In this document: positions 34,253 to 50,568 of the stretch, in pieces | How positions within the stretch are numbered: position 1 is the first letter of the stretch | Layout: each line of letters opens with the position of its first letter | NCBI GenBank assembly: GCA_019058445.1 | Contig: JAHPZA010000007.1 | Span: 1-64,000, forward strand | From: Promethearchaeota archaeon | GTDB taxonomy: Archaea; Asgardarchaeota; Lokiarchaeia; Sigyniarchaeales; SOKP01 | Length of the DNA: 64,000 bases | Reading direction: 5' to 3' | Made by a program: the position numbers and the translations under genes | Notes under the pieces: model-generated | Told to the model about the DNA's origin: nothing | Databases searched by the model: none | The model's input: the letters and a program-made list of their open reading frames with translations, nothing else

Positions 34253-34320
34253 AATTAGAGAATTATTATATAAACATATAATATTCCGAGATCGCTGGTT
34301 AATAGTTAAAATCTCTTCAA

Positions 34321-34480
34321 GCAGGGATAACCAAGCCTGGTCAACGGTGCCGGACTCTATTGAGATTTATTCTCATAAGCTGGACTCAAGATCTTTAAAA
34401 ATTAATTTCCGTTGATATACCAACTCTGATGAGATATCCGGTCTCATAGGAGTACGTGGGTTCGAATCCCACTCCCTGCA
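34321..34480 (+). tRNA. tRNA-Leu(CAA) with two introns (32/33: 34356-34385; 37/38: 34391-34435)
   Basis: Long variable arm; BHB central helices CCGG/CTGG and CTCA/TGAG. Confidence 0.9.
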
Positions 34481-34486
34481 TCTAAT

Positions 34487-34604
34487 GCGGGAATTGCCAA
34501 GTCTGGTTAATGGTGTTTTCGAGCTTTTTCGAAAGCCGACTTGAGGCGCTGGACTTAGAATCCAGTCTTGTAGAAGTTCGGGGGTTCAAATCCCTCTTCC
34601 CGCA
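34487..34604 (+). tRNA. tRNA-Leu(TAG) with D-loop intron (21/22: 34511-34543)
   Basis: Cloverleaf after excision; central helix GGTT/GACT with 3-nt bulges. Confidence 0.92.
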
Positions 34605-34776
34605 TAAAAATATTAAAAATGATGAGGGTAATTATTTTCTTGTTTGAAACTCATAATGGAAAATTTTTAATTTCTTAATTGATTTAAACATCTACCTAGC
34701 AAACTAGTTAATTATGATTTTTTTAAAGGAAAAACCTTAGTTAACTATCATTCTAAAATTTGCTGGTATTTACACA

Positions 34777-34881
34777 GCTCTCGTAGTGTAGCTCGGCCAA
34801 AGTCTCCTTGATTCCAAAGGTGACAGCGAGGCATGCTAGGCTTTCACCCTGGTGACCCGGGTTCAAATCCCGGCGAGAGCA
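34777..34881 (+). tRNA. tRNA-Glu(TTC) with D-loop intron (about 34801-34830)
   Basis: Cloverleaf after excision; BHB imperfect so junction approximate. Confidence 0.9.
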
Positions 34882-34917
34882 TCCAACGCTTTATGCGTTT
34901 ATGCATTGGAAAACCAA

Positions 34918-35084
34918 GCCTCCGTAGCTCAGTTAGGTAGAGCACTGAGTATTAATCATGCTCAGCCCGCCCAAAGCACCCGGCTTTCATAATTGATTAC
35001 CAGTATGACCGGAAGTTAACCGGGCGGTCGCATGTTCGATCCATTAGTGATTCGAATTCCGATTCGCTGGATAAGCCGGGGGCG
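34918..35084 (+). tRNA. tRNA-Asn(GTT) with three introns (22/23: 34941-34974; 33/34: 34986-35014; 63/64: 35045-35074)
   Basis: Excision restores a full cloverleaf with G73; central helices CCGG/CCGG and ATCC/GGAT perfect. Confidence 0.9.
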
Positions 35085-35256
35085 TACTTTATTCCCTATT
35101 GCTTTTTATTTTAAAAATTTGATCTTTCCTGCACGACCATCATTTTTTCTTTATATATTTTCAAAATATTCAACAATAAATTTTCTACTTAAAAATAGCA
35201 TAATAACCATTTCAATCGTAAATTTAGAGATTAATTCGATATTAATAGGTGATTCA

Positions 35257-35595
35257 ATGGAAGGAGGAAAGAAAGGATATATAGTACTCTGGATATTCAT
35301 GGGAATAATTTTATTTATAACTATACTTTATCCCATTTTTGGCATAAATTTAAAATATCAGATTGGAACTGCTATAAGCACAACGCTTATAAAATTAGGA
35401 AGCATTTTGATTATGGTAGGGACTATAATCCTTATTTTAGGCTTTATTATGTTATTTATCTCTGGGACAGGTTCAGGAGCGTTAAAACCAATGTTAATCG
35501 GGTTCTTTTTAATAGTTCTGGGAGTAATACTTATTGATCCGATGGGTACAAGCTATTTCACTCAAGGCAGAGAGGCCCCGAAAGGATATCATTAA
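35257..35595 (+). CDS. Small 3-TM membrane protein
   Basis: ATG after GGTGA SD; the longer ORF from 35032 overlaps the tRNA. Confidence 0.75.
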   Translation: MEGGKKGYIVLWIFMGIILFITILYPIFGINLKYQIGTAISTTLIKLGSILIMVGTIILILGFIMLFISGTGSGALKPMLIGFFLIVLGVILIDPMGTSYFTQGREAPKGYH

Positions 35596-35692
35596 TATTA
35601 ATTAGAATTATGTTAATTCTGCCTTGAATAAAAAATAACATAGTGTTTTTTAGAGATAAAAGTCAAATTCCCACATAAAAAATTCAACAAAT

Positions 35693-35926
35693 TCATACTC
35701 TAAAATATCTTAAACCGGTATATAATCCTGTCATCCACACAAGCATTATACCCGAAACAATAAGTAAAACAGCGTAGCGTTTTGCAAAACGTCCTCCAAT
35801 AATCAACAATACAAATCCAGCAATAAGGCCCAAAAAACCTAATAGTGAAGCAAAAGCAATTAAAAATTGAATTGCATCCGCTACTCTTGAAAAATACCCT
35901 GTGTAAATCATTTTAAATTTCCTCAT
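35693..35926 (-). CDS. Small 2-TM membrane protein (VirB2/CedA1 pilin-sized)
   Basis: Two Gly-rich hydrophobic helices joined by a basic loop. Confidence 0.65.
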   Translation of the reverse strand: MRKFKMIYTGYFSRVADAIQFLIAFASLLGFLGLIAGFVLLIIGGRFAKRYAVLLIVSGIMLVWMTGLYTGLRYFRV

Positions 35927-36030
35927 ATTTTAGGGACGCGAAGTATTGTACTTAAGAAGAAGTTAAGTTGAATATATTTAAAAGAAAAATATTGATCTCT
36001 TTTAAGTGATATTTCAAACTAATCTGCTAT

Positions 36031-36828
36031 CTAGTAATATTCGGATAACTTATTATTAACTTTCTCATGAATTTCTCTACAAATATCGGTTTTAATTTCA
36101 TCTGGCACATATTGCATATAAGATTCTACTGTGTGGTTAATAATGGGCTTAATACTGGCCATAAATTTTTCAATTTTGACTTCCTTTGCGAGATATAGTT
36201 TTTCGTAAGTATTTATATAGGACCTATTTAATGTTTTTAGCCAAGTCTGCCCTATAGATTCCAGATTTTTTCTAATTTGAATTGATTTTTTATCATTATA
36301 ATTTTCAAACACCCAATCATATTTTTCAAAAACCTCACTAAAATGATCTAAAATGTAGTCCTGAATTCTTAAACTCAAATCGGTATTCGCATTCAAAAAG
36401 ACGATAATCATGTAATTTTTATCTTGAAAAAATATTTTTATTTTTATGTTAGTACCGCCAATTCCAACATGCCGCAGATTTTCAATTTTTACATTTTCAG
36501 CAAATCCAATCAACGAGCTAAGATACATTGAGATAAAATCTGAAAGATCATCCTGATCTTGATTTAAATATTTTTCAATTGGACCAAATCTATTTCTACT
36601 ATTTCCATCATATTCATATGTTAGTATTGAGATTCCAGCTTTATTAGATAGTATAATACCGATAATTGGGGGGATTTGATTAAAGTTAAATAAAGATAAA
36701 AATGCTCTCCTTGAATTGAGTTCACTTCCAATAAGAAATTTGTCGTAATCATAAGGAATATTAGAACTATTATCAATAACTGGCAAGTTATTTAGAGGTT
36801 TTTCAAACTTATGATCTAATGCTCTCAT
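36031..36828 (-). CDS. Longin/roadblock-like domain protein
   Basis: IIGIILSNKAG.SIL beta-hairpin, helix DFISMYLSSL, three-strand pattern. Confidence 0.6.
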   Translation of the reverse strand: MRALDHKFEKPLNNLPVIDNSSNIPYDYDKFLIGSELNSRRAFLSLFNFNQIPPIIGIILSNKAGISILTYEYDGNSRNRFGPIEKYLNQDQDDLSDFISMYLSSLIGFAENVKIENLRHVGIGGTNIKIKIFFQDKNYMIIVFLNANTDLSLRIQDYILDHFSEVFEKYDWVFENYNDKKSIQIRKNLESIGQTWLKTLNRSYINTYEKLYLAKEVKIEKFMASIKPIINHTVESYMQYVPDEIKTDICREIHEKVNNKLSEYY

Positions 36829-36936
36829 TGTTGATTAATATAAAATACAAAATTCGCTTATAAGAAGAATAGACAGAAAGTTTTGTAATTTGAAAATCCT
36901 ATAATTTTTTCGTGAAATGCGGGTTTCATGAAGATT

Positions 36937-36952
36937 TATATATATCCCGATA
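36937..36952 (-). promoter_or_regulatory. TCG-type BRE/TATA promoter of 36031..36828
   Basis: TATCGGGATATATATA. Confidence 0.5.
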
Positions 36953-37021
36953 TTACCAATTTAAATTATTTTTGTATGAAGAGTCTTTTTTTTTTAAATA
37001 TCTTGGATTTAACAATGATTA

Positions 37022-38557
37022 ATGAGAGCACGTAATAAAACTGTAGTTATGTCAAAGGTTGAAAATTGGATTCAGAAAGGATCAAAATATGTCGAATTAG
37101 GTGATTTCAAAAGTGCTATTGAAATTTTTCAAAAAGGATTAAAAGATGAGCCAGAGAATGAGAAACTTTTACTCAATCTTGGGAATTTATATGATGATAT
37201 AGGGGATTATAATAAAGCAATTGACGTATATAAAAAAATTTTAGGGATGGATGATCAAAATAAAACTGTTTGGTATAATTTAGGAAATTCCTTAAGGAAA
37301 AATAAAGAATTTTACTCTGCTATTAAAGCGTATAAAAGAGTTATTGAAATAGACGTTTACCAATTGAATGCATGGAATAATCTAGGTTGTGTTTATTACG
37401 AGATTGGAGAAAAAGAAAATGCTATTGATATACTCAAAAAAACTTTAAATGTAGATTCAAATTACAAATTAGCCTGGTATAACCTTGCTTGTATATATTC
37501 CCAAATGCGAGAGTATGATAAATCTATTCAAATTTTTAAAAAAGCAATAGAAATTGATCCAGGATACAAAAAGGCATGGGATAAGCTAGAGATTGTTTAT
37601 AAGAGAAAAAATGAATTCACATTTGATTTAAAAAATATAAAAATTCTTAGGGGTGGAGATTGGAAAGTTGAAGGAGATAACAGTATTTTTTATTTTAAAG
37701 TAAAAATAATAAATAACTCACAATATCTTCTTTCTAATATCCAAATAATACTCACTTCAAAACCTAAAGGATTGAAAATAAAACGTGATAGAATTCAAAT
37801 CGAATCACTTAATCCTCATTCATTTATTGCTCCAAGATTTAAATTTAAGGCGAAAGAAAGCTGTGTAGGAGAAATAATAAAGGGAATGACATTATTTATT
37901 GATTATCTTGGAAATAGTCATACAATTGAAATTAAACCATTTAGAATAAAGTATGTATGCAATTTGCTTGTCAAGAAAAAAGTTACCAAAGATGTTTTCT
38001 ATGAAAAAGTATCGAAGATGGATGGCAATAGGATATTATTTGATTGTAAAGGCCAAATTGAAGATATAAATAATATAATTTCAGATATTTTAAAAAAAAA
38101 TAATTTTTATTTATTAAAACAATTACCAGATTATCAAAAAGGAGGTTATAGAAAATTAGAGGGTTTTGCGCAGGGAAAATATGATAATAAAGAGGTAGCA
38201 CTAGCGGTTTATTTAGAACAGAAGTTAAATGAACATACTCAACTAATAATTGATGCAATGAGTGAAGATAAAGCCAAAACAATCGATATTTTAAGAGATA
38301 TAAGCTCGCAATGTAATGAGATAAAGATTAGTACAGAATTAATTAAGGAATACACATCGAAAATAGAGGAAATATTTGAAAGGGTTGACGATCTCGAGTC
38401 TTTTCTGATTAAAAATCTCGGTTCAGATTGGACAAAAGTGAGATATGCTTGGCAAGAATATAAAGAAGGTATAATAGACAAAAAACAATTAATTAAAGAA
38501 TTTATTAAAGTATTAGGCAAAAAATTCATTCTAGCTTTAGTTAAGAAGTTTATCTAG
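37022..38557 (+). CDS. TPR protein with C-terminal beta-sandwich plus alpha/beta platform-like domains
   Basis: About 5 TPRs (W.NLG..Y...A), then a beta-rich region. Confidence 0.8.
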   Translation: MRARNKTVVMSKVENWIQKGSKYVELGDFKSAIEIFQKGLKDEPENEKLLLNLGNLYDDIGDYNKAIDVYKKILGMDDQNKTVWYNLGNSLRKNKEFYSAIKAYKRVIEIDVYQLNAWNNLGCVYYEIGEKENAIDILKKTLNVDSNYKLAWYNLACIYSQMREYDKSIQIFKKAIEIDPGYKKAWDKLEIVYKRKNEFTFDLKNIKILRGGDWKVEGDNSIFYFKVKIINNSQYLLSNIQIILTSKPKGLKIKRDRIQIESLNPHSFIAPRFKFKAKESCVGEIIKGMTLFIDYLGNSHTIEIKPFRIKYVCNLLVKKKVTKDVFYEKVSKMDGNRILFDCKGQIEDINNIISDILKKNNFYLLKQLPDYQKGGYRKLEGFAQGKYDNKEVALAVYLEQKLNEHTQLIIDAMSEDKAKTIDILRDISSQCNEIKISTELIKEYTSKIEEIFERVDDLESFLIKNLGSDWTKVRYAWQEYKEGIIDKKQLIKEFIKVLGKKFILALVKKFI

Positions 38558-38686
38558 ATTTTTTTTTCACTTATATTTTGCCTATTATAGTTTATTTTTA
38601 ATTTAAAGGATAAATCTTCAATCTAATTTTTACTAAACTTAGAACTGAAATTTTTAATGTAGATATTATTCTTTATCTAATACGGA

Positions 38687-38705
38687 TTTTGTCGGAGTTT
38701 TTATA
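38687..38705 (+). promoter_or_regulatory. TCG-type BRE/TATA promoter of the ATPase operon
   Basis: TTTTGTCGGAGTTTTTATA. Confidence 0.55.
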
Positions 38706-38742
38706 TTTAATTCTAAATTATTTTATAAAATTTAGCAGATTA

Positions 38743-41571
38743 ATGATTTTTTTTTCTAAATATCTTATAATTCTCTTAGGTTTTTTAGTATTTTTTCTTC
38801 TCCTAACACCATTCTATTTAAGAATTAAGGAAAAGAGGGAGAAAACAAGAGCTTATGAACTATATTATTTGTTTCTAGGTATTTTGATATACATTTTTTC
38901 TTTTTTAGAAACAGTTATATATCCACTTTCGGATAATTCACCCTTTCTATTAATAATTGAATTAGAAATGGTTTTCATTTTATTTCTTTTCAACATACTG
39001 TATTATTTTAGTCAACAAAACGCTCAAGATGAATGGACTACTATTTTATATCTAAGTATTATCATTTTACTTTCTCACATAGTTATTTGTGGAATTTATT
39101 TATCATTTTTAGTAGGAACTATTATTTCTCTTTTCATTGCATTGTTAAGTTTTACTATCATAATTCCATATAATAAGGACTGGAAATTAAGAGGTAATCT
39201 CATTATTTTTTCCTTATTAATTTATTATTCACTTATAGAAAATATACTCTTTATCTCAATTATTTCATTTTGTATCACTATAACACTTGTTTCCCTTGTA
39301 CACGATGAGATCCGCTTAAGAATTGTAGCTGTATATCCGGGATTGATAATAATTCTTAAGCGTATAATCTTTAGACCTAAAATCCTTATGAATAAATTTA
39401 GCATTATTTCAGATATAGAAAAACCTAAGAATTTAAATACAAATAAAAAAGTTAAGTTTTTCCAAGTAAAAGTTAAAATAATCCAGAGAAAACTTGAACA
39501 AGAACAAGATCCGTTAAATCTATATCAATTGAATGAAAGAAGTTTTTTAATTGATCTTCTCCCAGTAAAAGCCACTTATGTTCTTGAAATTATATCTCAT
39601 AAAAAATTTTCCTTATCATTTATAACAAAACATAGGAATAAAGAAAAAGCTCACGAACAAGGTTTAACGATATTAACTAAATTAAAAAGTCTTTATGAGG
39701 GAATTGATGGGGAAATAAGCGTTATTAAAATCTCTAGCAAGGAAATCTACAAAAAGGATCGATATTGGGAAATTAAAATCCCCAAACCACCATTCATAGA
39801 GAAAATGACGTTTATTAGGGATATTATAAATCTTTTTGATTTAAATGAAGAAAAAATAGAGATTTATATCATGTGGAAGCGAGTCTCATCATTAAACCAA
39901 TTTAGAATAAAAAAAATACGAGAGGATGTAAGAAATATAAAATTTAATGATGCAGATGAGAAGGAGAATTTCTTAGAAATGTGGCAAGGAGATCTTTATA
40001 AATTGAGAATTTTTTTCACTTTCAAAGTCTTTGAAAAAGATGTCAGATTAAGAAATCAAAAAATCCGAGAAATTGAAGCCATGCTAAAGACTCTCGCTAT
40101 GTCAAGTAGAAATGAGACTAAGATAGCTAAAATTAAAAAAGCTTCACCTTTTGCAAATGCAAACATCATAAGTAATAGATTATATGGAGGTCGCTATATA
40201 ACATCTAAAAGCTTGGACTTTGATGTTCTTCATGGAATTCCTTTACCTCGATCTTACGCATTGGAAGATGAGAATATTATTAATTTGGATGTAGAAGACC
40301 ATGATTTAAATTATATTTTAATTGGAAATTATATTAGAAATGGACGGGTTTCAGAAAAAAAGATTCCAATTCATAAAAATATATTTAGTCAATCAGTTTT
40401 AATAGGTGGGCAACCGGGTTCAGGAAAGACTTACCTTTTGAGCCAAATTACAAAAGAATTTTATACCAAATGTCCAGATATTGGGATAATGATTATTAAT
40501 TTAGGAAAAGGGAATCAAGAATTACTTTACAAATTTGATAAAATTTATAAATATGGGAAATCAAATTTAAGAGTTCCTTATTTTATCAGGGGAAAATTTC
40601 CAAGAAGGAGTTTACAAGAAACTGCTAAGTATTTAGTTGCTGCGGTTGGGTTAAAAAACATTGTTGAGATAAATATGTTTAATGTAATGCAATTATTTGA
40701 ACAAAAAAGGGGACAGCCCAAAACTGCTAAAGTACTTTTTAATAATTTATTAAAATACTTTGAATTTCGACCATATCATTCCAAATTTCAAACAAATATC
40801 ATAAGAGCGATAGAAAATCGAGTTCTGAGTATGTTATCAGATATGAGACTAGAAAAAACATTAGAATTATATAATAATCCCTATAAAATGCCATCATGGT
40901 TTGAGGAATGGCGAAAGGGTAAAAAAGTATATATTGATTTATCTAGTTGCACAATCTATGAAAAAAGACTATTATGTAATGCAATTTTTCAAATTGTTCG
41001 ATCTTGTGTACCAGATAAGGAGGAAGGTAATCTAAAAAACATCATTCTTCTAGATGAAGCACATCAAATCTTAGAAAAGCCTTCTTTACCTGCTGATCCT
41101 GACGATGATGATTATATTAGCAGACAATCGTTAAAGGATATTTTTAATGAATTATTAAGGGAATTTCGTTCTAAGGGCGTTTCATTTATAATATCAGACC
41201 AAACACCATATACTTTATTCGATTGTGCGACAATATTGCCCAGTTTAAAATTTCTTTTCAGATTAGGACATTTATCGGCGTCTATTATGGGTTCAAATGA
41301 AAAAGAAGAAGCTCTTTTACCAGAACAAGAAAATAGACATTTTATCGTAGTAAACGGTGTAACTGGCGAAAAATATAGAGGAAAAACTCTTGATTTGCCC
41401 ATTCCAACAAGATTATATAATAAAAGGAAGCAATTTGAAAGGGAATATGAAAATACAAACAAATTTTGTCAATTTTGTCATCAGATCATAGATATTGATG
41501 CTGTTTTCTGTCATAGATGTGGGAGCAAATTAATTTATGATACCTTTATAAATTCAAATTCAAAATTATAG
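38743..41571 (+). CDS. Polytopic membrane-anchored HerA/FtsK/VirB4-superfamily ATPase with C-terminal zinc ribbon
   Basis: About 6-7 N-terminal TMs, GQPGSGKT, ILLDEAH, REFRSKG, SDQ, CxxC-CxxC; ATG 38743 preferred because the TTG at 38689 lies within the promoter. Confidence 0.85.
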   Translation: MIFFSKYLIILLGFLVFFLLLTPFYLRIKEKREKTRAYELYYLFLGILIYIFSFLETVIYPLSDNSPFLLIIELEMVFILFLFNILYYFSQQNAQDEWTTILYLSIIILLSHIVICGIYLSFLVGTIISLFIALLSFTIIIPYNKDWKLRGNLIIFSLLIYYSLIENILFISIISFCITITLVSLVHDEIRLRIVAVYPGLIIILKRIIFRPKILMNKFSIISDIEKPKNLNTNKKVKFFQVKVKIIQRKLEQEQDPLNLYQLNERSFLIDLLPVKATYVLEIISHKKFSLSFITKHRNKEKAHEQGLTILTKLKSLYEGIDGEISVIKISSKEIYKKDRYWEIKIPKPPFIEKMTFIRDIINLFDLNEEKIEIYIMWKRVSSLNQFRIKKIREDVRNIKFNDADEKENFLEMWQGDLYKLRIFFTFKVFEKDVRLRNQKIREIEAMLKTLAMSSRNETKIAKIKKASPFANANIISNRLYGGRYITSKSLDFDVLHGIPLPRSYALEDENIINLDVEDHDLNYILIGNYIRNGRVSEKKIPIHKNIFSQSVLIGGQPGSGKTYLLSQITKEFYTKCPDIGIMIINLGKGNQELLYKFDKIYKYGKSNLRVPYFIRGKFPRRSLQETAKYLVAAVGLKNIVEINMFNVMQLFEQKRGQPKTAKVLFNNLLKYFEFRPYHSKFQTNIIRAIENRVLSMLSDMRLEKTLELYNNPYKMPSWFEEWRKGKKVYIDLSSCTIYEKRLLCNAIFQIVRSCVPDKEEGNLKNIILLDEAHQILEKPSLPADPDDDDYISRQSLKDIFNELLREFRSKGVSFIISDQTPYTLFDCATILPSLKFLFRLGHLSASIMGSNEKEEALLPEQENRHFIVVNGVTGEKYRGKTLDLPIPTRLYNKRKQFEREYENTNKFCQFCHQIIDIDAVFCHRCGSKLIYDTFINSNSKL

Positions 41572-41584
41572 TAGGTAATATATT

Positions 41585-42271
41585 ATGAGTGAAATAAATA
41601 GTGATGAATATGAGGAATACGAGGAATATGAAGGAGAGCAAGATGAATCAGAAGAAAATGAACAAAATAAAGAACTTCAAGTGGATTATGGATATGATCA
41701 AGAAAAAGAACAAGAAGATAAACTTAAAGTAGATTATGGATACGATCAAGAAAAAGAACAAGAAGATAAGCTCCAAGTAGATTATGGATGCGATCAACAA
41801 GAAGAACAAAAAAAAAAAGATCATATTGATAAAAAAAATAATGAAATAAGATCAGAAGAAGATAAATTCAAATCAGAAAAAGGAGCTTTATTTGGAGGAG
41901 AAAAATCGAAGGAGAATTTATACAAGACTAATAATAATATTACAGAAAAGGATAAAATTAAGGATTTAGAAGAAAAAAAAAATGAGTCAGAAAACAAAAT
42001 AAAAAACCAGAAAAAACAAAGTTCTAAAGATAAAAGGGGTAAAAGAGGTAAAAGAGGCAGAAGAGGCAAGCGTGGACGTCGAGGGAAGAGTGGTAAGTCT
42101 AAAGGAGGTATGTTAGATTTTAGAACATTAAAAAAAGAGAAAAAGGAAGAGAAGAAAAAACGAGGAGTATTTAAGAAAACAGAGGAAGAAATAAAAGAAG
42201 AAATTAGAAAAGAAATATATAAACAACTTCAAGATGAACAAATTAAGAGAAAGGCAGGTATATTAAGATGA
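41585..42271 (+). CDS. Low-complexity bipolar protein (acidic N-terminus, basic C-terminus)
   Basis: SD AGGT; E/D-rich then K/R-rich; stop overlaps the next start (ATGA). Confidence 0.75.
   Translation: MSEINSDEYEEYEEYEGEQDESEENEQNKELQVDYGYDQEKEQEDKLKVDYGYDQEKEQEDKLQVDYGCDQQEEQKKKDHIDKKNNEIRSEEDKFKSEKGALFGGEKSKENLYKTNNNITEKDKIKDLEEKKNESENKIKNQKKQSSKDKRGKRGKRGRRGKRGRRGKSGKSKGGMLDFRTLKKEKKEEKKKRGVFKKTEEEIKEEIRKEIYKQLQDEQIKRKAGILR
41670..41810 (+). repeat. Three tandem 48-bp (16-aa) coding repeats
   Basis: LQVDYGYDQEKEQEDK-like unit x3. Confidence 0.85.
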
Positions 42272-43173
42272 AAAGAGGTCAATCTGTTTCAGAGGGATTA
42301 AAGCAATACAAAAAAACGATGTCAGAAAAATTTAGTGATTGGAAAGAAGATTCTTATGGGCCTTGGAAAGAAGAGACCTATAAGCCATGGAAAAAAGAAT
42401 TTTCTAAGAATGTGAAACGATTTAATAAACAATTCAAAAAGATGCTTGTCCGTTGGAAGAGGAATATGTTAGAAAAATATAAGCAATGGCGTAAGAATAA
42501 GGTAAAAAGAGAAGCAGGGTTGCAGATAAAAATAAAAAACATAGAAAAGGTGGAAATAGGGAATAAAAAGATCAATTACCATAATCATCTCAATTATTTC
42601 CCTTCAAATGAGGGGCCTACAGAATTTGAGTATCAGAATATTCGAGAGAGAAATACGTTTCCTGTAAGAAATCAATATCCGGAAATTGAAGATCGATATT
42701 ATTATGAGAAAACTGCATACAATTTGGATGAAGATATTAGATCACAGAAATATTTAGGATATGATCGAGGAAAGGGAATTCAAAAAAATGTTGATTTTAA
42801 TAGTTTATTTCGGGATTTTGCCCTAATTCAGGATTTACTGAGAACGAAATCACATCAAGAAATTTTTATTAAATGTCGTTATTTAATTGAGTCTTTTCTC
42901 GAGAAAATTGCGGATATGATTGGAATTCAATATAGAAATGTCCAACATTTCTTAGCAAGCTTAACAAATATGAATCTTAAGAGAAAATTCATATTCTATG
43001 ATGAGATTATTGGGTATACTAAGTTTTTAAATGCAAATCTACATAATGTAGATAGGTTCATGGCTCACTCAATTTATATCCTTACGAAAAGAATTATTAA
43101 CAAATTAGAAAGCATTTTGAGTAGAAAATCGAATAATAATTTTTATTCAGAATATGGAGAAATCTTTCATTAA
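42268..43173 (+). CDS. Hypothetical protein; Trp/Lys-rich N-terminus, possible degenerate HEPN (DUF4145-like) C-terminus
   Basis: CRYLIESFL and LNANLH resemble the R..LE and RNxxxH motifs. Confidence 0.55.
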   Translation: MKRGQSVSEGLKQYKKTMSEKFSDWKEDSYGPWKEETYKPWKKEFSKNVKRFNKQFKKMLVRWKRNMLEKYKQWRKNKVKREAGLQIKIKNIEKVEIGNKKINYHNHLNYFPSNEGPTEFEYQNIRERNTFPVRNQYPEIEDRYYYEKTAYNLDEDIRSQKYLGYDRGKGIQKNVDFNSLFRDFALIQDLLRTKSHQEIFIKCRYLIESFLEKIADMIGIQYRNVQHFLASLTNMNLKRKFIFYDEIIGYTKFLNANLHNVDRFMAHSIYILTKRIINKLESILSRKSNNNFYSEYGEIFH

Positions 43174-43288
43174 TACTCAACTGATTCAATTCAATTTTTT
43201 TTATTACTTATCTTTAAAGCTTGTTGTAGTTTAAATAATTTAAATCCAAATATAGAGTATATTATTTAGCTAAAATTATCAGATTATT

Positions 43289-43624
43289 ATGACTCAAGAA
43301 TATAAAAATTGTCCTCGTTGCAATGGGAAGAAGATTGTAGATTTAGATAACAAAATAAAATGTTTAGATTGTAAGTTAACGTTTGATAAAAAAATCATTA
43401 AGTTAATTGAAGATAAAGCATATATCTTGGCAAATGAGGAAAATGAGGAAATTCTTAAGGAAATATTAGATTCTAAAAATATTAATGAATTTATAGATTT
43501 GTTAAATGAAGTTGATGGAAATTTTTCACACTGCCCCTATTGTTTTGGAAAAATAGAAAAACAGCTTAAAATTTGTCCCTCTTGCGGAATTTTCTTAGAA
43601 GATTATGCAAAAATTAAGAATTAG
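43289..43624 (+). CDS. Double zinc-ribbon protein
   Basis: Four CxxC pairs. Confidence 0.75.
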   Translation: MTQEYKNCPRCNGKKIVDLDNKIKCLDCKLTFDKKIIKLIEDKAYILANEENEEILKEILDSKNINEFIDLLNEVDGNFSHCPYCFGKIEKQLKICPSCGIFLEDYAKIKN

Positions 43625-43685
43625 CAAAATTATGATAATTTATACTAATTTAGAATTTTAAATTTTCTTTCCAATGTAACACTAG

Positions 43686-43704
43686 TTTTGTCGGGATTTT
43701 TATA
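43686..43704 (+). promoter_or_regulatory. TCG-type BRE/TATA promoter, probably leaderless
   Basis: TTTTGTCGGGATTTTTATA ending 21 nt before the ATG at 43726. Confidence 0.6.
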
Positions 43705-43725
43705 GCTATATTTAGAACTAAATCG

Positions 43726-44340
43726 ATGATATCTCAGGAAAATTCAGATTCTTCGGACCCATTTTCCGTTTTTCAATCGGTAAATGACGCCATAGTGGGA
43801 ATATTAGTCCCATTTAACGAGATTTGTATCAATATTTTTCGTTTTGGAAACTGGATTTTATTTCTTATTTTTATATTTTTAGGAGTAAATCTATTAATGA
43901 GTGCCCATGAAAAAGAAACTGAAGAAAGAATTCACGGAAAAAACTTAGAGTATATTCAAAAAAGAGGTCGTATTGGATCTTTTATTTTAATTTTAATAGC
44001 CATTGGTTTCTTATTCAAAGGACTAACGATACTAACGATAATTAGCTTTAGTTCATTTTCAGCTCCGCCCGTTTTTCGATGGCTAAAATGTCAATATCTA
44101 TATAATAATATAAGTACGTTAGAGGACCTGAAAAAGTATGATGTCTTTGAAGTAAGTTTATTTCTATTTATTAGTTTAGTGTCTTTCATTTCAATAATTC
44201 TAATTAGTTTTGGTATTTATCTTCTTCTTTTTAATAAGAGAATTCTTAGAACACATTATAAAGCTTGTTCATTCATTGTTATTGGAGTTATTTTAGCTTG
44301 TATCTTTGGGATTACTCCAGGATTACTCCTAACTTTGTGA
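43726..44340 (+). CDS. 4-TM membrane protein, paralog of 47812..48429
   Basis: Four hydrophobic helices; shared AIG..F...PP.F..L and FG..P motifs. Confidence 0.75.
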   Translation: MISQENSDSSDPFSVFQSVNDAIVGILVPFNEICINIFRFGNWILFLIFIFLGVNLLMSAHEKETEERIHGKNLEYIQKRGRIGSFILILIAIGFLFKGLTILTIISFSSFSAPPVFRWLKCQYLYNNISTLEDLKKYDVFEVSLFLFISLVSFISIILISFGIYLLLFNKRILRTHYKACSFIVIGVILACIFGITPGLLLTL

Positions 44341-44379
44341 GATGTTCATAAAGGAATTATGATTTAAAGCTTAATATAA

Positions 44380-44904
44380 TTATGATTTTAATTGTTTTTC
44401 ATATAAATCTTTGATATATTCATTTAATTCTTTAAATTTCATTTCATTAATCGTCGTTAATTTATCTTCTTCCCAGTTAAAGGTAGTCATACTCTTATCT
44501 GGTTTATGGTTGAATTCTAAATCTTCATACTTAGGTACAAAATCCTCATTAAAATCCTCTTGATCCTTAAATTCATCATCTTCTTCTATAGTGTTATCAA
44601 TTGCCTCATATTCACTAAAAGATAACCTTTTTAGAAAAAAATATACTAAAATACAAAGAAAGATAAACACAAGATTACTTGGAATTACTGTTTCTGAGGT
44701 TAAAATTACATCTGTTTTATTATACAAATTAGGAAGTGAATTTAGGATATAAAAACTCACTGATAACAATATTAACACAGTTATTACGAGCTTTAATCTG
44801 TGAAATGTAGGTTGATAAGCTTGAACTTTATAGAAAACGGCTATTGAAATAGCTAAAGCTGTAGTTAAAATAACAAATGTTAAAAATAATTCGAATGTGA
44901 CCAT
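44380..44904 (-). CDS. 3-TM membrane protein with acidic tail
   Basis: Hydropathy pattern. Confidence 0.7.
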   Translation of the reverse strand: MVTFELFLTFVILTTALAISIAVFYKVQAYQPTFHRLKLVITVLILLSVSFYILNSLPNLYNKTDVILTSETVIPSNLVFIFLCILVYFFLKRLSFSEYEAIDNTIEEDDEFKDQEDFNEDFVPKYEDLEFNHKPDKSMTTFNWEEDKLTTINEMKFKELNEYIKDLYEKQLKS

Positions 44905-44972
44905 CTCTATCTTTTTCTCTTTATGATCCTATAAATCGCCTTATCGATATCAATTAATTATTTAAAATTAAG

Positions 44973-44988
44973 TATAAAAAGTTCGAGA
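44973..44988 (-). promoter_or_regulatory. TCG-type BRE/TATA promoter of 44380..44904
   Basis: TCTCGAACTTTTTATA on the minus strand. Confidence 0.5.
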
Positions 44989-45190
44989 TTTATCCATGGC
45001 AGTTATAAAAAGTAAGTAAATTTACTAAACCAGTTTTTTTTTTAAATTGAGAAATTTATATTTTTATAAGATTAGACTAATTAGATCTTTTTGTCGATAA
45101 TACTTCGATTTTATAATTTTCATTTTATTATTTTACAAATGAGCTAACAGTGAGATTAAATAGATTACATAGTTTTAAGTAATAAGCAAA

Positions 45191-46717
45191 TTAATCTTTA
45201 AAATAATTAAAAATAACTTTAAGAATTAAGTCTTTAAAACATTTTAACACTTTTTCCCCTTCTAACGCGCATACTGGATACACTACTAAAGAACCATCAG
45301 GATATTTAATTTCGTTAGGTAGATTTAAGATTCTTTTAAATATATCTAATGAAATCGCATTATCTAAATCTCTCTTATTTAGTTGCACGTTTATAGGGAC
45401 TCTGAGATGTCCAATGGTATTTATTAGTTCCTGAAAGCTTTGTTTGTTTTGTTCCATCTTGGAAGGATCAGAATCACCTATAAAAATCACTCCGTCAGCG
45501 CCCTCAAGGATCCGCCTGCGAGCTACCGAAAAATTTTCAAGGGCAGGAACAGTTACAATTTGAATAATTACCCCATATTTAGTATCCTCAATTTCAAACT
45601 TTAATAAAATATACTGAGAATCATGCCACAGTGTTGAACCGTTAGTGGTTTCAATGGAATATCCTTTGGTTAAATTCATAGATGAAAATTTTTTTTGTAG
45701 TAACTTAAAATTAGAGGTTTTTCCGGATTTAGAAGGGCCCCAAAAAATTATTCTAAATTGTAGGATTTCATCACAATTTTTTAAGCTTCGATTATCTTTA
45801 GCTTTTTCAATTTCATGATCTATATACTTAGTTAATTCTTTATATCGTTTCCTAATCGTAGCTTCGGTTACTCCAGCTGCTAAAGAAATTTCTTTTTGGG
45901 TTCTTCGTTCTCCCTCCTGTAGCGCAGCAAAATAGAGTGCCCCCCCAGCAAGCCCAGCAGGAGTTTTTCCGGCGGTGAGTCGATACTTTTTTGCTAAATT
46001 TAATATTTTCGTGGCACGATTTTTCGTATTTTCTGAGAGATTAAGATTAGCTGCAAATTTGGGAATATAACTTAAAGGTGAACTTGCATTAAGATTTAGC
46101 TTTAATTCTCTGAAGACAAGTCTATAACACCGGGCTAGTTTTTTTTTCTCAATAGCAGTAAATTCCAAAAAGTCTTCAATAATTTTGGGGACATTATTAA
46201 TTTTGCATGCTGTATAAATTGAAGCTATCACAATGGCCTCAATGGATCGACCTTTAGCAAGATGCATTACTTTTCTATAAATATGAGCTGAAGATTCCTT
46301 TAGATATTTTGGCAAATTCATTTGAGATGAGATTCTGTCTAATTGAGTCATTGCTTCCGCTAAGTTTTTCTCTTTAGGCGTATAAATCATCGATCTTTTA
46401 TTCCAAGTTCTTAGCCTTTTGATTTCTCCAATCATTTTCGGACTAATTTTGTTCCCTTTAGCATCTCGATTCGATTTTCCAATGACCGTGTTTAAACCTT
46501 TATCATATTGCATTAAATTCGTTGGAGCTCCGATTCTAACTTTTTTTGCCTTATCTTCTGAGTTAAAAGCACGCCAATCAACCCCAGAATTAATAAGATG
46601 TTGCTTAATTACCAATCCACATGCGTTACAAATGATTTCGCCGCGAAAAGCATCATTTATTAATATTTCATTCCCACATTCAGGACATATATCTGAAACT
46701 TTTTCTGCGACATTCAT
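45191..46717 (-). CDS. TFB paralog fused to a C-terminal MglA-like small GTPase
   Basis: Complete TFB (aa 1-300), then GPSKSGKT, GADGVIF, NKRD, CAL. Confidence 0.92.
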   Translation of the reverse strand: MNVAEKVSDICPECGNEILINDAFRGEIICNACGLVIKQHLINSGVDWRAFNSEDKAKKVRIGAPTNLMQYDKGLNTVIGKSNRDAKGNKISPKMIGEIKRLRTWNKRSMIYTPKEKNLAEAMTQLDRISSQMNLPKYLKESSAHIYRKVMHLAKGRSIEAIVIASIYTACKINNVPKIIEDFLEFTAIEKKKLARCYRLVFRELKLNLNASSPLSYIPKFAANLNLSENTKNRATKILNLAKKYRLTAGKTPAGLAGGALYFAALQEGERRTQKEISLAAGVTEATIRKRYKELTKYIDHEIEKAKDNRSLKNCDEILQFRIIFWGPSKSGKTSNFKLLQKKFSSMNLTKGYSIETTNGSTLWHDSQYILLKFEIEDTKYGVIIQIVTVPALENFSVARRRILEGADGVIFIGDSDPSKMEQNKQSFQELINTIGHLRVPINVQLNKRDLDNAISLDIFKRILNLPNEIKYPDGSLVVYPVCALEGEKVLKCFKDLILKVIFNYFKD

Positions 46718-46881
46718 TATAACTAACTTTTAACATCATATAAAATAGAAATTATAAAAAATACACGAAAATAGGTTAGACATCCAGGCTTTATTAAATT
46801 CAAGAAAATGTTTGTATAAAAACAAGTCACTAGAAAAAGTTTAAAATTTTTTCTTTAAATAGGCTTAAAATACAGAAGGAT

Positions 46882-47289
46882 ATGATTAAGACTGAAATAA
46901 GATATGAAAAATCGCTTGGAAGACTGAAATGTGATATTTGTGACACTAGATTTCGAGAAAACGCAAGGATTTATAAAGTTAATAATGACATAGGGTATGT
47001 TTGCCAACAATGCAATGATAATTTTTCTAAGGAAGATATATATCTGATTATAGACTTGTTTAAATCTTATGGCGGGTATTTTGGGAAATTCGATGATATA
47101 AAATTATCCTTAGATAATATTTTAACGGAATTTTATGATAGAATTTCGGCTGACGGTAATTTAAAAAACACTTTCGAATATAATAGGAAATTATGTCATA
47201 AAGCACTGCTAAATGGCTATACCCCTAAACAGCTTATTCAAAAAATGAAAGTTCCAAAAAATTATAAACTTAAAAAACGCACCATTTAG
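46882..47289 (+). CDS. Zinc-finger hypothetical protein
   Basis: CDIC...CQQC; divergent from the TFB fusion. Confidence 0.7.
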   Translation: MIKTEIRYEKSLGRLKCDICDTRFRENARIYKVNNDIGYVCQQCNDNFSKEDIYLIIDLFKSYGGYFGKFDDIKLSLDNILTEFYDRISADGNLKNTFEYNRKLCHKALLNGYTPKQLIQKMKVPKNYKLKKRTI

Positions 47290-47462
47290 ATAGATATTGC
47301 TTGCTTAAATCACTAGACCTGTGAACTCATATAAATTAAATTACCAATAAAATTTGGTTTGATACCCCTTTTGACAGAAATATTTGAGTTTAAATAATCA
47401 TCAAAACAAATATTGATAGTTTAAATTAGATTTGAATATTTAAAAGTTCAAATTTAACTTTT

Positions 47463-47727
47463 ATGGTGGGAGAATATCTCAAAATCAATCAATTTTCATG
47501 ACTTAATTGAATCAGAAAAGATCTTACCTCCAATACAATTTAAATTGATTAAAGCCTTAATATTTAAAGGACCATTAACGAGAAAAGAATTATCAATTGA
47601 GCTCAATATTCCTCGGAGTACCATTTACGACAATTTAAAGAAACTTGAAAAGCGGAACGTTGTTATAAAATACATATTAATAGAAGGTAAACAAGGGCGT
47701 CCTCCTGTCTTTTGGCAAATCAAATGA
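47463..47727 (+). CDS. TrmB-like winged-HTH regulator, paralog of 56530..56784, with a disrupted 5' reading frame
   Basis: PIQ..LIKAL..GP.TR.EL...LN.PR.TIYDNL.KL; the ATG at 47463 is out of frame with the body. Confidence 0.7.
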
Positions 47728-47811
47728 ACTCAAAATTAGTTTTAACTAATTATCTTTTATTTTTTTTTAGTTTAAATAATTACTTTACAAATTAAAAATG
47801 AGGTATTTAAT

Positions 47812-48429
47812 TTGCCAAAAGATCTATTAGTGTTTAAAATTTTTGAGATTGGTGATTCTGATGATATCTTCTTCATAATTAATCAGGGAATACTTATGTT
47901 CTTTTTCTTTTTGAAATATATATTTATTTTCATCCTCTTAATGATATCTTTACTAACATTAACAAAATTAAGAGGAATTTATCTGCATGAAAGATATAAT
48001 AAATTAGAGGAGAGTGAAAACAAATTGCTGAAACCCCGATTAATTTTGGGTATAACATATCTTTTTCTGGCAATTGGTATCGCTTTTAATTTTCTGATTT
48101 ATTTTTTAATATGGATATCATATTTTCTTCCACCGCCATTAATTTTCCAGCTTCTGGATGTTATTGATCCGGGATTCTATGATCCTAATAGGATTCGCGA
48201 TCCCAATAAGAATAAATATGAATTCGAGCGATTTATTTATCTTCTATTTGCATTAGCATCTTTTGAAGCATGCCTGCATTTAATCTTGACAATATGGTAT
48301 TTAATAAATAATAATAGAAATATTAGCAATCCTAGAGTAGTTATTCATAATTTAATTTGGTCTCTTTCTGTTTCAATTGTTTTTGGATTCTTAACCTTCG
48401 CACCATACTTTTTGCGGGCAACTTGGTGA
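47812..48429 (+). CDS. 4-TM membrane protein, paralog of 43726..44340
   Basis: GAGGT SD, TTG start, four TMs. Confidence 0.75.
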   Translation: MPKDLLVFKIFEIGDSDDIFFIINQGILMFFFFLKYIFIFILLMISLLTLTKLRGIYLHERYNKLEESENKLLKPRLILGITYLFLAIGIAFNFLIYFLIWISYFLPPPLIFQLLDVIDPGFYDPNRIRDPNKNKYEFERFIYLLFALASFEACLHLILTIWYLINNNRNISNPRVVIHNLIWSLSVSIVFGFLTFAPYFLRATW

Positions 48430-48519: not shown

Positions 48520-49926
48520 ATGACTGAAAGCAAAGGAAGTAAAGATCCATCTAATTTTAAAAATATAGAGCAAGAAGTCTTGAGGTTTCTTGATTCCAGA
48601 GGGTCAATTCGTGCAGCTCTTCTGCACAAGATCGAGAAACATTTTTGCGGTCAGAAATCCATTATAAATCTTCGTAAAGAGTTTTTATTATCATGTCTTT
48701 GGCAGATAGCTAAGGATAAGAAGATAGAAATAATTATCCCTGAGCTATTCCGCGTTAAATGGAGTCAAAAAAAGCTAACAAATTTAAAATATTTAAAGGA
48801 TGGGATTTATCTATGTAGAAAGTTTCCGATGATTCGAAATAAACTTCTTAAATCTATTTTAAATAATTATTACTTTGATTCAAGAAAGAGAAGTTTTAGT
48901 GAATTAGATCAAGGAATAGAATATCTTAAATTAATTTTAGAGAAGGTAAGAAATTTTAACAAAAAGATAATCATATATAACCCTTTAGGCAGCAATCCAT
49001 TGGATATTTATGAAGAGAAGGCTCAATTTAATTATAAATTACAAAAAGCTAATTTTCAAATAAAACAAGATAACATGATTAAGGAAAAGTTAGATATTCC
49101 TTCAGAAGACCGGGCAGAGGCCTTGGCAGTAGTTCAAGGATATAGAAGTAGATATATGTGCTTTTATATTCCTTTAATTGAATCTATTTTAAAGACTATA
49201 GAGTATATTCAAGTACATAAGGAAGATCTTTCAGATTATGAAAAAGTTTTACAAGACTACACGGAAAAATTTGCCTATAATTGTATAGAATTTGTTAAGT
49301 CTGATTATATTGAAATAGAGCCAAATCCTTTAAGATGGGAAAGCATCTTCAACTATTTAGATCTTCCTATAAAAATTCTTGAGTATGATTTTAAATATAT
49401 TAAATTTCATGGAAGAACATGGGAAAATTATCAAATACTTAAAATTTGTATATATATTGAAAAACAAAAATCGAGTATTATAAAAAAATTGAAGAAATTA
49501 GGCTATGAAGAATTTCCTGAGGAAAATTATGATGATCTTATTGCTATTGGTTTAAATATAGAGATCTATTATCCTTGCTCTACAATCGAGCATATCTATT
49601 TTTTAAGTAAATTTATATGCTTCTATTATTTGTTTCTGTTATTTTATCACTCTTTTGAATACATCAAGGAAGTAAAACCGAAGATTCGCTTTACAAAGAA
49701 GGAGAAGAGTTTATATACAAAATTTTTACCAGTGCTTACAAAGTTATTTAATTTAAATGAAAGTGAAAGTAAAGTTTCAAGGAAACTAGTTTTTAAATAT
49801 TATACCCTTGATCCTGATGAACTGGAAATAATTTTTAATCACTTTTTAATTAAAAGACTTAAAGAGATTGAAAAAAAATTGTTTTATTGGTGGAGATATA
49901 AAACAACTCTACTTAAACCGGCTTAA
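48520..49926 (+). CDS. Hypothetical protein
   Basis: 468-aa ORF with no recognised motif. Confidence 0.7.
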   Translation: MTESKGSKDPSNFKNIEQEVLRFLDSRGSIRAALLHKIEKHFCGQKSIINLRKEFLLSCLWQIAKDKKIEIIIPELFRVKWSQKKLTNLKYLKDGIYLCRKFPMIRNKLLKSILNNYYFDSRKRSFSELDQGIEYLKLILEKVRNFNKKIIIYNPLGSNPLDIYEEKAQFNYKLQKANFQIKQDNMIKEKLDIPSEDRAEALAVVQGYRSRYMCFYIPLIESILKTIEYIQVHKEDLSDYEKVLQDYTEKFAYNCIEFVKSDYIEIEPNPLRWESIFNYLDLPIKILEYDFKYIKFHGRTWENYQILKICIYIEKQKSSIIKKLKKLGYEEFPEENYDDLIAIGLNIEIYYPCSTIEHIYFLSKFICFYYLFLLFYHSFEYIKEVKPKIRFTKKEKSLYTKFLPVLTKLFNLNESESKVSRKLVFKYYTLDPDELEIIFNHFLIKRLKEIEKKLFYWWRYKTTLLKPA

Positions 49927-49932
49927 GCTTGG

Positions 49933-50568
49933 TTAACAAAACTTATATTTAAATGGATTATATTTCTTTTCTTCTCCTATTGTGGTAATTCCTAAATGTC
50001 CCGCTAAAATTAAAAAGTCCTCACTTAATTTTGGATTATAAATCAGTTTATTTCTAATGTTTGAACAGAGTAATTCTTCATTTCCTCCTGTGAGATCAGA
50101 TCTTCCTTTATCTCTTCGAAAAATTAAGTCTCCCGTAAAAACTAATCCATCATATTCTCTGTTTTTGAAAAGCGTAATATCTTTACTGTACAAACTAATA
50201 TTACCTGGAGAATGCCCTGCGGTTTCCATGATATGTAAATTAATACCGTTGATATTTAAGACATCCTCCTCTCTCAGCCAATTATCTGCTCTCATCCATT
50301 TAAAAATTTTAAAATATTATAATTCCTTTTTATTATACCATAAGGGTACGTTATATCGCTGCATTAACGGTTTCAAAGTTTTTGTATGATCTGGGTGTGT
50401 ATGAGTTAATATTATTCCAATTGGCTTATATTGTAAAAGATCCAATTTATTAATAATTCTATTTGCCTCTCCGCCAGGTTCTATGATATAGACTTCTTTT
50501 TTCTTTGCAGATCCAATGATATAGCAATTTGTTTCATATGGCCCTACTACAAGTTTTTCTAAAATCAT
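49933..50568 (-). pseudogene. MBL-fold hydrolase (glyoxalase II-like) interrupted by an in-frame TAA
   Basis: THTHPDH in the 5' part; GHSPG, TGD and GH in the 3' part; same frame, stop at 50317-50319. Confidence 0.85.

Follow-up and report, generated by a model that had tools for sequence, protein, structure and literature searches.

We propose that an accessory genomic island of a Lokiarchaeia-type Asgard archaeon carries, as its core, a membrane translocase resembling type IV secretion systems (T4SSs) and the Ced system, formed by the membrane ATPase E, its partner F (perhaps with G) and the small membrane proteins A, B, I and J, and accompanied by the island-borne regulators K, L and a winged helix-turn-helix (wHTH) protein; we put the probability of this reading at about 0.5. 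The window, by which we mean the whole stretch of 64,000 nucleotides that was analysed, belongs to contig C7 of a 4.6-Mb, 10-contig genome (G000) of ~29% GC, and the island occupies 35.09-47.8 kb of it, adjoining a tRNA gene cluster. It is plausible that the island holds a T4SS/Ced-like translocase module that has not been described before. The broader proposal of a single machine, in which all island genes would serve one DNA-uptake system under the control of K, is unproven, and part of the island may be unrelated cargo. Throughout, genomes are labelled G and neighbourhood loci L, each with a number; L012 is the paralogous locus of the same genome (G000:C6:512000-531999). The proteins related to those of the window carry the labels Lokiarchaeota, Promethearchaeota or Hermodarchaeota.

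The extent of the island follows from comparison with G279, a genome of the same genus, which is collinear with the window from the gene of the housekeeping transcription factor B (TFB), at 28.9 kb, up to position 35084, where the last tRNA ends, continues for ~320 bp, and then resumes with M, N and a radical-SAM gene, the intervening 12.7 kb from A to the wHTH gene being missing. Given that G279 keeps M and N while everything from A to the wHTH gene is absent, these two are therefore backbone genes outside the island, and M, which the original prediction had included in its gene set (N lying just past its end), has to be removed from it. The features that frame the island are these:

34320..35090, + strand: intron-rich tRNA gene cluster, the island's left border (direct reading; synteny with G279 up to 35084)
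47812..48429, + strand: M, a 205-aa protein with four transmembrane (TM) helices, a backbone gene of the right flank outside the island (orthologues in island-less genomes)
48520..49926, + strand: N, a backbone gene outside the island (kept in G279)

The tRNA cluster consists of 4 or 5 genes with several introns apiece, which are visible by reading, yet ARAGORN finds 0 tRNAs in the window and Rfam, at its gathering threshold, none in the cluster, where a single sub-threshold tRNA appears at 34532-34597. In the close metagenomic relative L079, whose K is 90% identical, the order J-K-L-HTH-M is unchanged. Direct repeats resembling att sites at the island borders are chance matches only (<=13 nt), and no family match to an integrase, relaxase or NurA was obtained among the 22 window proteins scanned, in agreement with what had been reported from the sequence alone. 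In four DNA runs of the source metagenome the island is covered uniformly and at the depth of its flanks, one contig spans 35016-51000, and the only candidate excision joints are short-sided ones that we take as noise, so that no credible joint was found.

Fifteen genes (A-N and the wHTH gene) lie between 35.2 and 49.9 kb, the reading frames A-N all being present where they had been placed. In searches of Pfam, NCBIfam, PADLOC and PHROGs, just three proteins could be named with confidence, namely D (TPR), K (TFIIB repeats, TFIIB zinc ribbon and Arf-like G domain) and the wHTH protein; PHROGs yielded no informative family for any of the proteins scanned. The proposed translocase core centres on two adjacent genes:

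38743..41571, + strand: E, a 942-aa membrane ATPase (7-8 TM helices, VirB4-type N-domain, HerA/VirB4/DptH-type motor, C-terminal zinc ribbon)
41585..42271, + strand: F, its 228-aa partner, with an acidic-aromatic leader and a (KRG)n basic tail (position, composition, repeats)

E is, as originally claimed, a membrane-bound ATPase, of P-loop type and with 7-8 N-terminal TM helices; its start, however, is not the TTG at 38689 but the ATG at 38743, since a promoter-like element (38690-38705) sits 38 nt before that ATG, and the resulting 942 aa agree with P0001. In an AlphaFold model of the full-length protein (33 homologues; predicted local distance difference test score, pLDDT, 85), TM helices occupy residues 1-217, the alpha/beta N-domain spans ~239-500 and the RecA-type motor ~505-900, and a zinc ribbon closes the chain. 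The motor belongs to the FtsK/HerA superfamily and its Walker A (GQPGSGKT), Walker B (DEAH) and arginine residues are all intact. Foldseek searches with the full model rank TrwK/VirB4 of R388 first (E 9e-15), followed by HerA-NurA, Sir2-HerA, DndH-C and the C-terminal domain of VirB4, and a family profile run against PDB sequences retrieves HerA chains and the STIV B204 packaging ATPase (E 4e-6 to 2e-4). HerA chains align with the full model from residue ~320 onwards; the N-domain best matches VirB4 and DUF8128, a partial resemblance to the HAS barrel being possible. Folded separately (pLDDT 87, pTM, the predicted template-modelling score, 0.86), this N-domain returns TrwK in all of its top 14 Foldseek matches (E ~2e-6), with the next match at 5e-4, and its nearest neighbours in the ESM Atlas, with template-modelling scores of 0.59-0.69 over 214-259 residues, are N-domains of DUF8128 type, from bacterial DUF87/TrwB_AAD_bind/T4SS-DNA_transf ATPases of Actinomycetota, Bacillota and Patescibacteria. 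The N-domain is thus predicted to adopt the VirB4 fold that marks VirB4-type T4SS ATPases. Taking the VirB4-like N-domain together with the HerA/VirB4-type motor and the TM helices, E therefore represents the VirB4 two-domain architecture equipped with its own membrane anchor, and the Ced/T4SS-like architecture originally suggested for it is borne out by the AlphaFold/Foldseek comparison. Among 33 members of the family, Pfam assigns DUF87 to 18, TrwB_AAD_bind to 2 and FtsK to 2. A predicted complex of E(228-942) with F scored 0.01, which weighs neither for nor against binding.

F is the most conserved partner of the ATPase and had been overlooked in the original prediction. Its leader consists of VDYGYDQEKEQEDKL repeated three times and is built from 48-nt DNA repeats. 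An acidic N-terminus characterizes 12 of the 22 same-strand genes directly downstream of family ATPases and 1 of the 249 other genes in these loci, a contrast that is indicative only, given that the loci are related and the threshold was picked after inspection. These N-termini are tandem acidic-aromatic repeats (DDYEP/NDFEP, EDFEP, EYDPFSL, WDEIDW), and many of the partners are homologous to one another. Their C-termini, on the other hand, vary and comprise LAGLIDADG (four loci, including the paralogous locus of the same genome), Hint plus LAGLIDADG, a basic tail, a sigma70-r4 helix-turn-helix (HTH; 34 bits), and a TFIIB repeat (E 2e-19) plus HTH. F resembles the 193-aa partner of L047, the closest orthologous locus, where a separate tandem-HNH protein follows the acidic-leader gene. 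In two partners (L048:6632-9298 and L049:11017-13143) a Hint (intein-splicing) and LAGLIDADG module extends almost to the C-terminus. The stretch in L048 may, as far as its sequence tells, be an intein, or equally well a releasing/nuclease module, because it reaches nearly to the C-terminus. Since the conserved acidic-leader partners have DNA-targeting ends, export of protein or of protein-DNA complexes is at least as likely as DNA uptake.

The other recurrent companions of the ATPase are small membrane proteins, four of which lie within the island:

35257..35595, + strand: A, 112 aa, 3-4 TM helices and a conserved C-terminal GYH (homologues in L063 and L064)
35693..35926, - strand: B, a 77-aa hairpin of two helices joined by a basic loop, with G(L/I)(R/K)YFR conserved at the C-terminus (pilin-like in topology only)
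43726..44340, + strand: I, a 204-aa protein with four TM helices (homologue in L015)
44380..44904, - strand: J, 174 aa, three TM helices and an acidic tail (orthologue in L079)

A and B, originally described as two pilin-sized hydrophobic proteins, are real genes of 3-4 and 2 TM helices with homologues in other genomes: those of A lie 3-5 kb from the ATPases of L063 and L064 (E 1e-15 and 6e-13), and those of B occur in L063 and, as the gene immediately upstream of the ATPase, in L050. A homologue of I (E 9e-33) precedes the long-form ATPase of L015 by 2 kb, and J, whose three TM helices had been correctly predicted, weakly matches (2e-6) a 113-aa TM protein of L012. M has orthologues in G279 (72%) and G138 (52%), both of which are without the island; M-like genes stand beside the paralogous ATPase of L012 (41%) and, divergently oriented, next to the E orthologue of G333. 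Of the claim that I and M are paralogous 4-TM proteins, the topology stands, and the paralogy is marginal (phmmer E 0.03 directly; 1.3e-3 between I and an M-like protein). All in all, genes like A, B, I, J or M adjoin family ATPases in L012, L015, L050, L063, L064 and G333.

The ATPase family itself is small, with 193 cluster representatives (E <=1e-3) among 1.84 billion proteins, and it is almost entirely Lokiarchaeial. In a search of 301 Asgard genomes it is confined almost wholly to the taxonomic family of the window, where 26 of 68 genomes have it, in up to 5 copies per genome; one of the four same-genus genomes carries it. Two forms can be distinguished, a long one (~900-1280 aa) with an N-terminal extension ahead of the VirB4-like N-domain, which in the seven examples examined contains 3-7 predicted TM helices, and a short one (~650-720 aa) without it, which often follows a separate gene for a protein of 4-5 TM helices. 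The TM domain of E shows no similarity to the separate membrane proteins c4 and c7, and a fusion/fission link between the two arrangements is thus unsupported. When the reading frames of 20-kb regions around ~20 members were clustered, most neighbours varied with the ATPase subtype, and the recurrent ones were the acidic-leader downstream protein and the small membrane proteins. Co-occurrence with the ATPase accordingly holds for the F-type partner and for relatives of A, B, I, J and M; it fails for C, G, H and N.

Several of these loci deserve mention in their own right. L012 (4083-16549) contains a paralogous soluble ATPase of 646 aa beside a 988-aa TPR protein, an M-like 4-TM protein, the 113-aa TM protein and a 664-aa acidic-leader LAGLIDADG protein; on the other side of the ATPase lie two proteins of 597 and 618 aa whose translations, inspected by eye, look like an OLD-family ATPase and a UvrD helicase, a Gabija-like pair. 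Directly upstream of short-form ATPases (L064:8183-8941, also L063 and L059) is a 230-252-aa protein with 4-5 TM helices and a HELSH motif, which has no Pfam match and may be a membrane metalloprotease-like partner. One ATPase subtype (L053, L054, L056, L061) is preceded by a thermosome (Cpn60/TCP-1) gene, and in L053, L056 and L061, though not in L054, a 612-691-aa protein with a GIY-YIG (SegE-like) N-terminus also precedes the ATPase.

The regulators of the island are headed by a fusion protein, and the putative promoters are listed with them:

45191..46717, - strand: K, 508 aa, a TFB (1-305) joined to an MglA/Arf-like G domain (315-508) (Pfam, NCBIfam)
46882..47289, + strand: L, a 135-aa zinc-ribbon protein paired divergently with K, an arrangement also kept in L079 (L 72% identical) and L080 (43%)
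47458..47727, + strand: winged-helix (TrmB/ArsR-type) regulator, the last island gene, start uncertain (TrmB 3.5e-8; orthologue in L079)
36937..36950, - strand: TCGGGATATATATA, a promoter-like site between the divergent genes C and D (motif match)
38690..38705, + strand: TGTCGGAGTTTTTATA, a promoter element resembling the TFB-recognition element (BRE) and TATA box, 38 nt before the ATG of E (conserved in G333)
43689..43704, + strand: TGTCGGGATTTTTATA, the promoter element of I, 22 nt ahead of its ATG (motif match)
44973-44986: TCGAACTTTTTATA, a promoter-like site of J (motif and J orthologue both kept in L079)

K is indeed the TFB-GTPase fusion first noted, with a complete TFB and an Arf/MglA-like G domain in one chain. 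Its TFB part has the zinc ribbon, the linker, two cyclin repeats and the C-terminal BRE-reading HTH (Pfam TFIIB 2.9e-36, 123.8 bits over two stretches; Zn_Ribbon_TF 2.4e-13, 49.8 bits; NCBIfam TFIIB 354 bits with a cut-off of 384). The G domain (Pfam Arf 2.9e-09) is ~53% identical to a stand-alone MglA-like GTPase that occurs in 92 of 134 genomes of the taxonomic family, and it keeps G1 (GPSKSGKT), G4 (NKRD) and G5 (ALEG). Besides K, four other fused sequences are known; in all five the intrinsic Arg (EGRTLW to NGSTLW) and the Gln of G3 (TCTGQER to TVPALEN) are lost, and in three of the five the Gly of G3 as well. Judging from these motifs, the G domain is likely to be a nucleotide-binding, hydrolysis-poor switch. 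A limited literature search turned up no description of such a fusion, which occurs in 2 of the 400 Asgard genomes searched, G000 and G333, members of one genus that both also carry an E orthologue. L is the divergent neighbour of K, with an invariant TATA block, CCTATTTAAAGAAAAAATT, on its side. The K-L pair is kept in L080 among otherwise unrelated neighbours (a Dam-type methylase and a MoxR-type AAA protein) and therefore constitutes a module of its own. TFB-like sequences recur near family ATPases elsewhere, as a divergent gene two genes upstream of the ATPase in L063/L064 (pairwise E 2e-4) and as the TFIIB repeat inside the acidic-leader partner of L066. The genome has ~13 TFB paralogues; the probable housekeeping one, at 28873-29775 on the - strand of the window, shares 98% identity with its G279 counterpart and 60% with K's TFB part. 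The HTH regulator that had been recognised in the sequence corresponds to the TrmB/wHTH gene, whose backbone paralogue (56515-56784, 45% identical) lies 9 kb downstream; the island copy has no canonical start codon ahead of its first helix.

A promoter motif shared across the island had been proposed, and its four sites do exist: TCGRRNTWTWTATA has 4 copies in the window, all within 36937-44986, and 13 in the 4.6-Mb genome. This degenerate form was, however, fitted to its own sites and lacks specificity, being no commoner in related genomes than a reversed control and not found upstream of ATPase orthologues in other genera. Only the longer 16-mer, TGTCGGRRTTTTTATA, is specific, with 2 occurrences in G000, 2 in G333 and 6 in the other 133 genomes (control count 5), and it is doubled only in G000 and G333, which are exactly the two genomes with K. 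The promoters of E and I share TTTTGTCGGrrTTTTTATA, and an identical 17-mer stands upstream of the E orthologue of G333, even though the N-terminal 300 residues of the two proteins are only 41% identical. The second exact copy of TGTCGGAGTTTTTATA in G333 (L113, G333:C268, 2036-2051) precedes only a hydrophobic reading frame of 27 codons. The conserved element of the E and I promoters and its co-presence with K are suggestive of a TFB-driven regulon, in which K would be the putative reader of these promoters.

The remaining island genes have looser ties to this core:

36031..36828, - strand: C, a 265-aa soluble protein of a widespread Lokiarchaeial family (no Pfam match)
37022..38557, + strand: D, 511 aa, N-terminal TPR repeats (Pfam TPR_1 5e-35) and a C-terminal half without family match
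42268..43173, + strand: G, a 301-aa basic protein overlapping F by 4 nt, with a weak sigma70-r4-like HTH signal in its C-terminal domain
43289..43624, + strand: H, a 111-aa double zinc-ribbon protein (weak DZR match)

Of the 135 genomes of the taxonomic family, 107 have a homologue of C, mostly at a distance from the ATPase, and the G333 orthologue of C (62% identical) sits in an unrelated context; its original designation as longin-like comes down to rank 35 of an ESM Atlas feature search, where a Roadblock/Fuz_longin cluster scores 0.83. TPR proteins also flank the ATPases of L012 and L052, a weak link since TPR genes are common. The C-terminal domain of G scores under the cut-off of TIGR02937 (E 4e-4), and its last 120 aa recur, away from ATPases, in unrelated proteins of 770-935 aa, two of which, when examined, started with hydrophobic TM-like segments. 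H has no homologue in the ATPase loci examined. Elsewhere in the window, an archaeal 23S rRNA gene, cut by the window start, is represented at 1-1032 on the - strand by its 5' portion (model positions 1-941); a 120-aa reading frame (49933-50295, -) matches only the C-terminal part of the metallo-beta-lactamase fold and is probably a gene fragment; and two adjacent B12-binding/radical-SAM paralogues (50723-52348 and 52489-54081, -; ~27% identical) form a pair that is kept in G138.

A number of observations weigh against a translocase core under the island's own regulators. None of 33 family members matches the VirB4/TrbE/CagE or T4SS-DNA_transf families of Pfam at E 0.01, and the TM domain of E (1-225) has no usable feature match in the Atlas. 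Homology of the small membrane proteins to a VirB6/CedA-like pore or a VirB2/CedA1-like pilin is undemonstrated, the candidates for such a pore being I and the 8-TM domain of E itself; A has no Pfam match, its profile finds nothing relevant among PDB sequences, and that of B finds no chain there, pilins included. In phmmer and BLAST searches against the ATPase-neighbour proteins, neither F and G nor H, C, N and L gave anything significant; F fits the acidic-leader partner class by composition, repeats and position only. C, G and H appear, from the loci compared, to be unlinked to the ATPase elsewhere. As to control by the island's own TFB, the promoter element of E kept in the only other K-bearing genome speaks for it, whereas the BRE-reading helix of K, GVTEATIRKRYKEL, is by alignment practically identical to that of the neighbouring housekeeping TFB, GVTEATIRNRYKEL, the promoter of K itself lacks a conserved TCG, and K and L form a pair that is conserved separately from the ATPase. 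Finally, the patchy, multi-copy distribution of the ATPase agrees equally well with mobile or defence modules and with a cellular machine.

These points bear directly on the alternatives. It is conceivable, if somewhat unlikely, that the island is a mosaic of insertions beside the tRNA cluster, in which E and F (with some of the membrane proteins) and K and L are independent of each other and the rest is unrelated cargo. The different neighbours of K and L in L080, the presence of C in an unrelated G333 context and its near-universal occurrence in a taxonomic family where E is patchy, the lack of linkage of G, H and N, and the subtype-dependent ATPase neighbourhoods would all follow naturally. 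What a mosaic explains less readily is that G000 and G333, two members of the genus, both have E, K, L and C-like genes, all with raised identity, that the promoter element common to E and I is specific to these two genomes, and that TFB-like genes or domains turn up repeatedly around ATPases of the family. An integrated virus or plasmid remnant, with E as its genome-packaging or conjugative-plasmid ATPase, is very improbable: apart from the tRNA-adjacent position and the HNH, GIY-YIG and LAGLIDADG genes found around members of the ATPase family, it has to contend with the absence, among the proteins scanned, of any capsid, integrase, replication or relaxase gene or PHROG assignment, and with a locus that has no att repeats, is read at chromosomal depth and yields no credible excision joint.

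Two further alternatives retain the ATPase and its partner as a functional pair and assign them another task. In a polymorphic toxin-like scheme, the ATPase would recognise the leader and export the partner to the medium or a neighbouring cell, where its variable end would act, DNA itself not being cargo. The constant type of leader joined to interchangeable LAGLIDADG, Hint, HTH, TFIIB-repeat or basic C-termini, the tandem-HNH gene that follows in L047, the Hint domains that precede the extreme C-terminus in L048 and L049, and the patchy, multi-copy, island-borne distribution are consistent with such export; yet F in the window has a basic tail only and no nuclease, and LAGLIDADG and Hint modules can equally be selfish insertions, and we regard it as unlikely. 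Anti-virus defence, by a HerA/DptH-like ATPase acting with a sensor/effector partner as in Sir2-HerA, DUF4297-HerA or Dnd/Pbe, seems rather doubtful to us, because the N-domain matches VirB4/DUF8128 conjugation ATPases, and because an 8-TM anchor and recurrent small membrane proteins would be unusual for HerA defence systems. A defence island is nonetheless suggested by the family profile, which matches defence HerA in the PDB, by a motor resembling DndH and defence HerA, by nuclease-tipped partners with a patchy, multi-copy distribution, and by the L012 paralogue directly beside the Gabija-like pair of OLD-type ATPase and UvrD-type helicase read by eye. PADLOC, run on 8 island proteins, matched E weakly to mad8 (7e-10, 36.9 bits) and HerA (4e-8, 30.5 bits), scores that are at superfamily level only, and matched no effector model, unlike known HerA-type defence systems; neither Sir2, DUF4297, Dnd or another known effector, nor a NurA adjacent to E as in HerA-NurA pairs, was found in the window scans.

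If the island does harbour a T4SS/Ced-like translocase, as we favour, then E, whose single chain joins a polytopic membrane domain to a VirB4-type N-domain and a hexameric motor of HerA/VirB4 type, would sit in the membrane and, driven by ATP, move a polyanionic cargo through or to a membrane channel. That cargo could perceivably be the acidic-leader protein, DNA, or a protein-DNA complex. A, B, I and J, the small hairpin membrane proteins, would supply the part embedded in the membrane or exposed at the surface, and F (perhaps with G) would act as a member of the partner class that is marked by an acidic-aromatic repeat leader together with a DNA-binding or nuclease end of variable kind. K, L and the wHTH protein would serve as island-borne regulators, with the TGTCGGRRTTTTTATA element driving E and I. 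Taken to its limit, and improbable as a whole, this would be a minimal mobile Lokiarchaeial T4SS-like machine in which a single-chain pore/VirB4 ATPase reads acidic-aromatic leaders and transfers DNA-binding or nuclease proteins from cell to cell, alone or accompanied by DNA, and which in this lineage is switched on via island-specific TGTCGG-TATA promoters by a TFB gated by a nucleotide-sensing, hydrolysis-dead GTPase.

For Asgard archaea, we found no description of a conjugation-like or Ced-like transfer apparatus in the literature searched, and gene flow and cell-cell contact in these organisms bear directly on models of eukaryogenesis. The VirB4-type ATPase family and its acidic-leader partner class thus offer a concrete, testable candidate for macromolecule transfer in Lokiarchaeia. 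Moreover, Asgard archaea are the archaeal lineage with the largest expansion of small GTPases, and a TFB fused to a catalytically dead MglA/Arf-like GTPase would tie small-GTPase signalling directly to transcription initiation.

Among known systems, E shares its VirB4-type alpha/beta N-domain and FtsK/HerA-superfamily motor with VirB4 (TrwK), with VirB3-VirB4 fusions and with the DUF8128-DUF87 ATPases of monoderm and Patescibacteria T4SSs, and like the VirB4 of these systems it is membrane-attached and encoded beside small membrane proteins. It differs in having ~8 fused TM helices in place of a separate VirB3, in its C-terminal zinc ribbon and in the absence of a VirB4 Pfam match; no recognisable VirB6, VirB8, VirB2, VirD4 or relaxase is encoded at this locus, and the E module instead has its conserved acidic-leader partner, for which we know of no T4SS counterpart. 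From the HerA-based defence and DNA-modification systems (Sir2-HerA, DUF4297-HerA, DndH/DptH) E is set apart by the VirB4-type N-domain and the membrane anchor, and by having no known effector family.

The Ced and Ted systems of Crenarchaeota (CedB/CedD/TedB, CedA/TedA, CedA1/TedC) present the same minimal set of a TM-anchored VirB4/HerA-like ATPase and two-helix or polytopic small membrane proteins (PMC11868833, PMC9905601). CedD in particular consists of TM, N-terminal domain and HerA/VirB4 ATPase, the very order seen in E, and roughly one CedB/CedD/VirB4 protein in two is reported to have TM helices (PMC11868833), while the pilins of Ced and Ted share no recognisable sequence similarity with each other (PMC9905601). 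Homology of A, B or I to CedA1 or CedA is undemonstrated, and Ced, unlike the E module with its patchy, multi-copy and island-borne distribution, is encoded by chromosomal genes conserved across orders and is without an acidic-leader partner. For Ced, induction runs through the truncated TFB known as TFB3, whereas K combines a full TFB with a G domain. K has all the elements of archaeal TFB paralogues and a G domain ~53% identical to a stand-alone MglA-like GTPase, but differs from both in joining them in one chain and in a G domain that, like those of the other four known fused members, is without the catalytic Arg and Gln.

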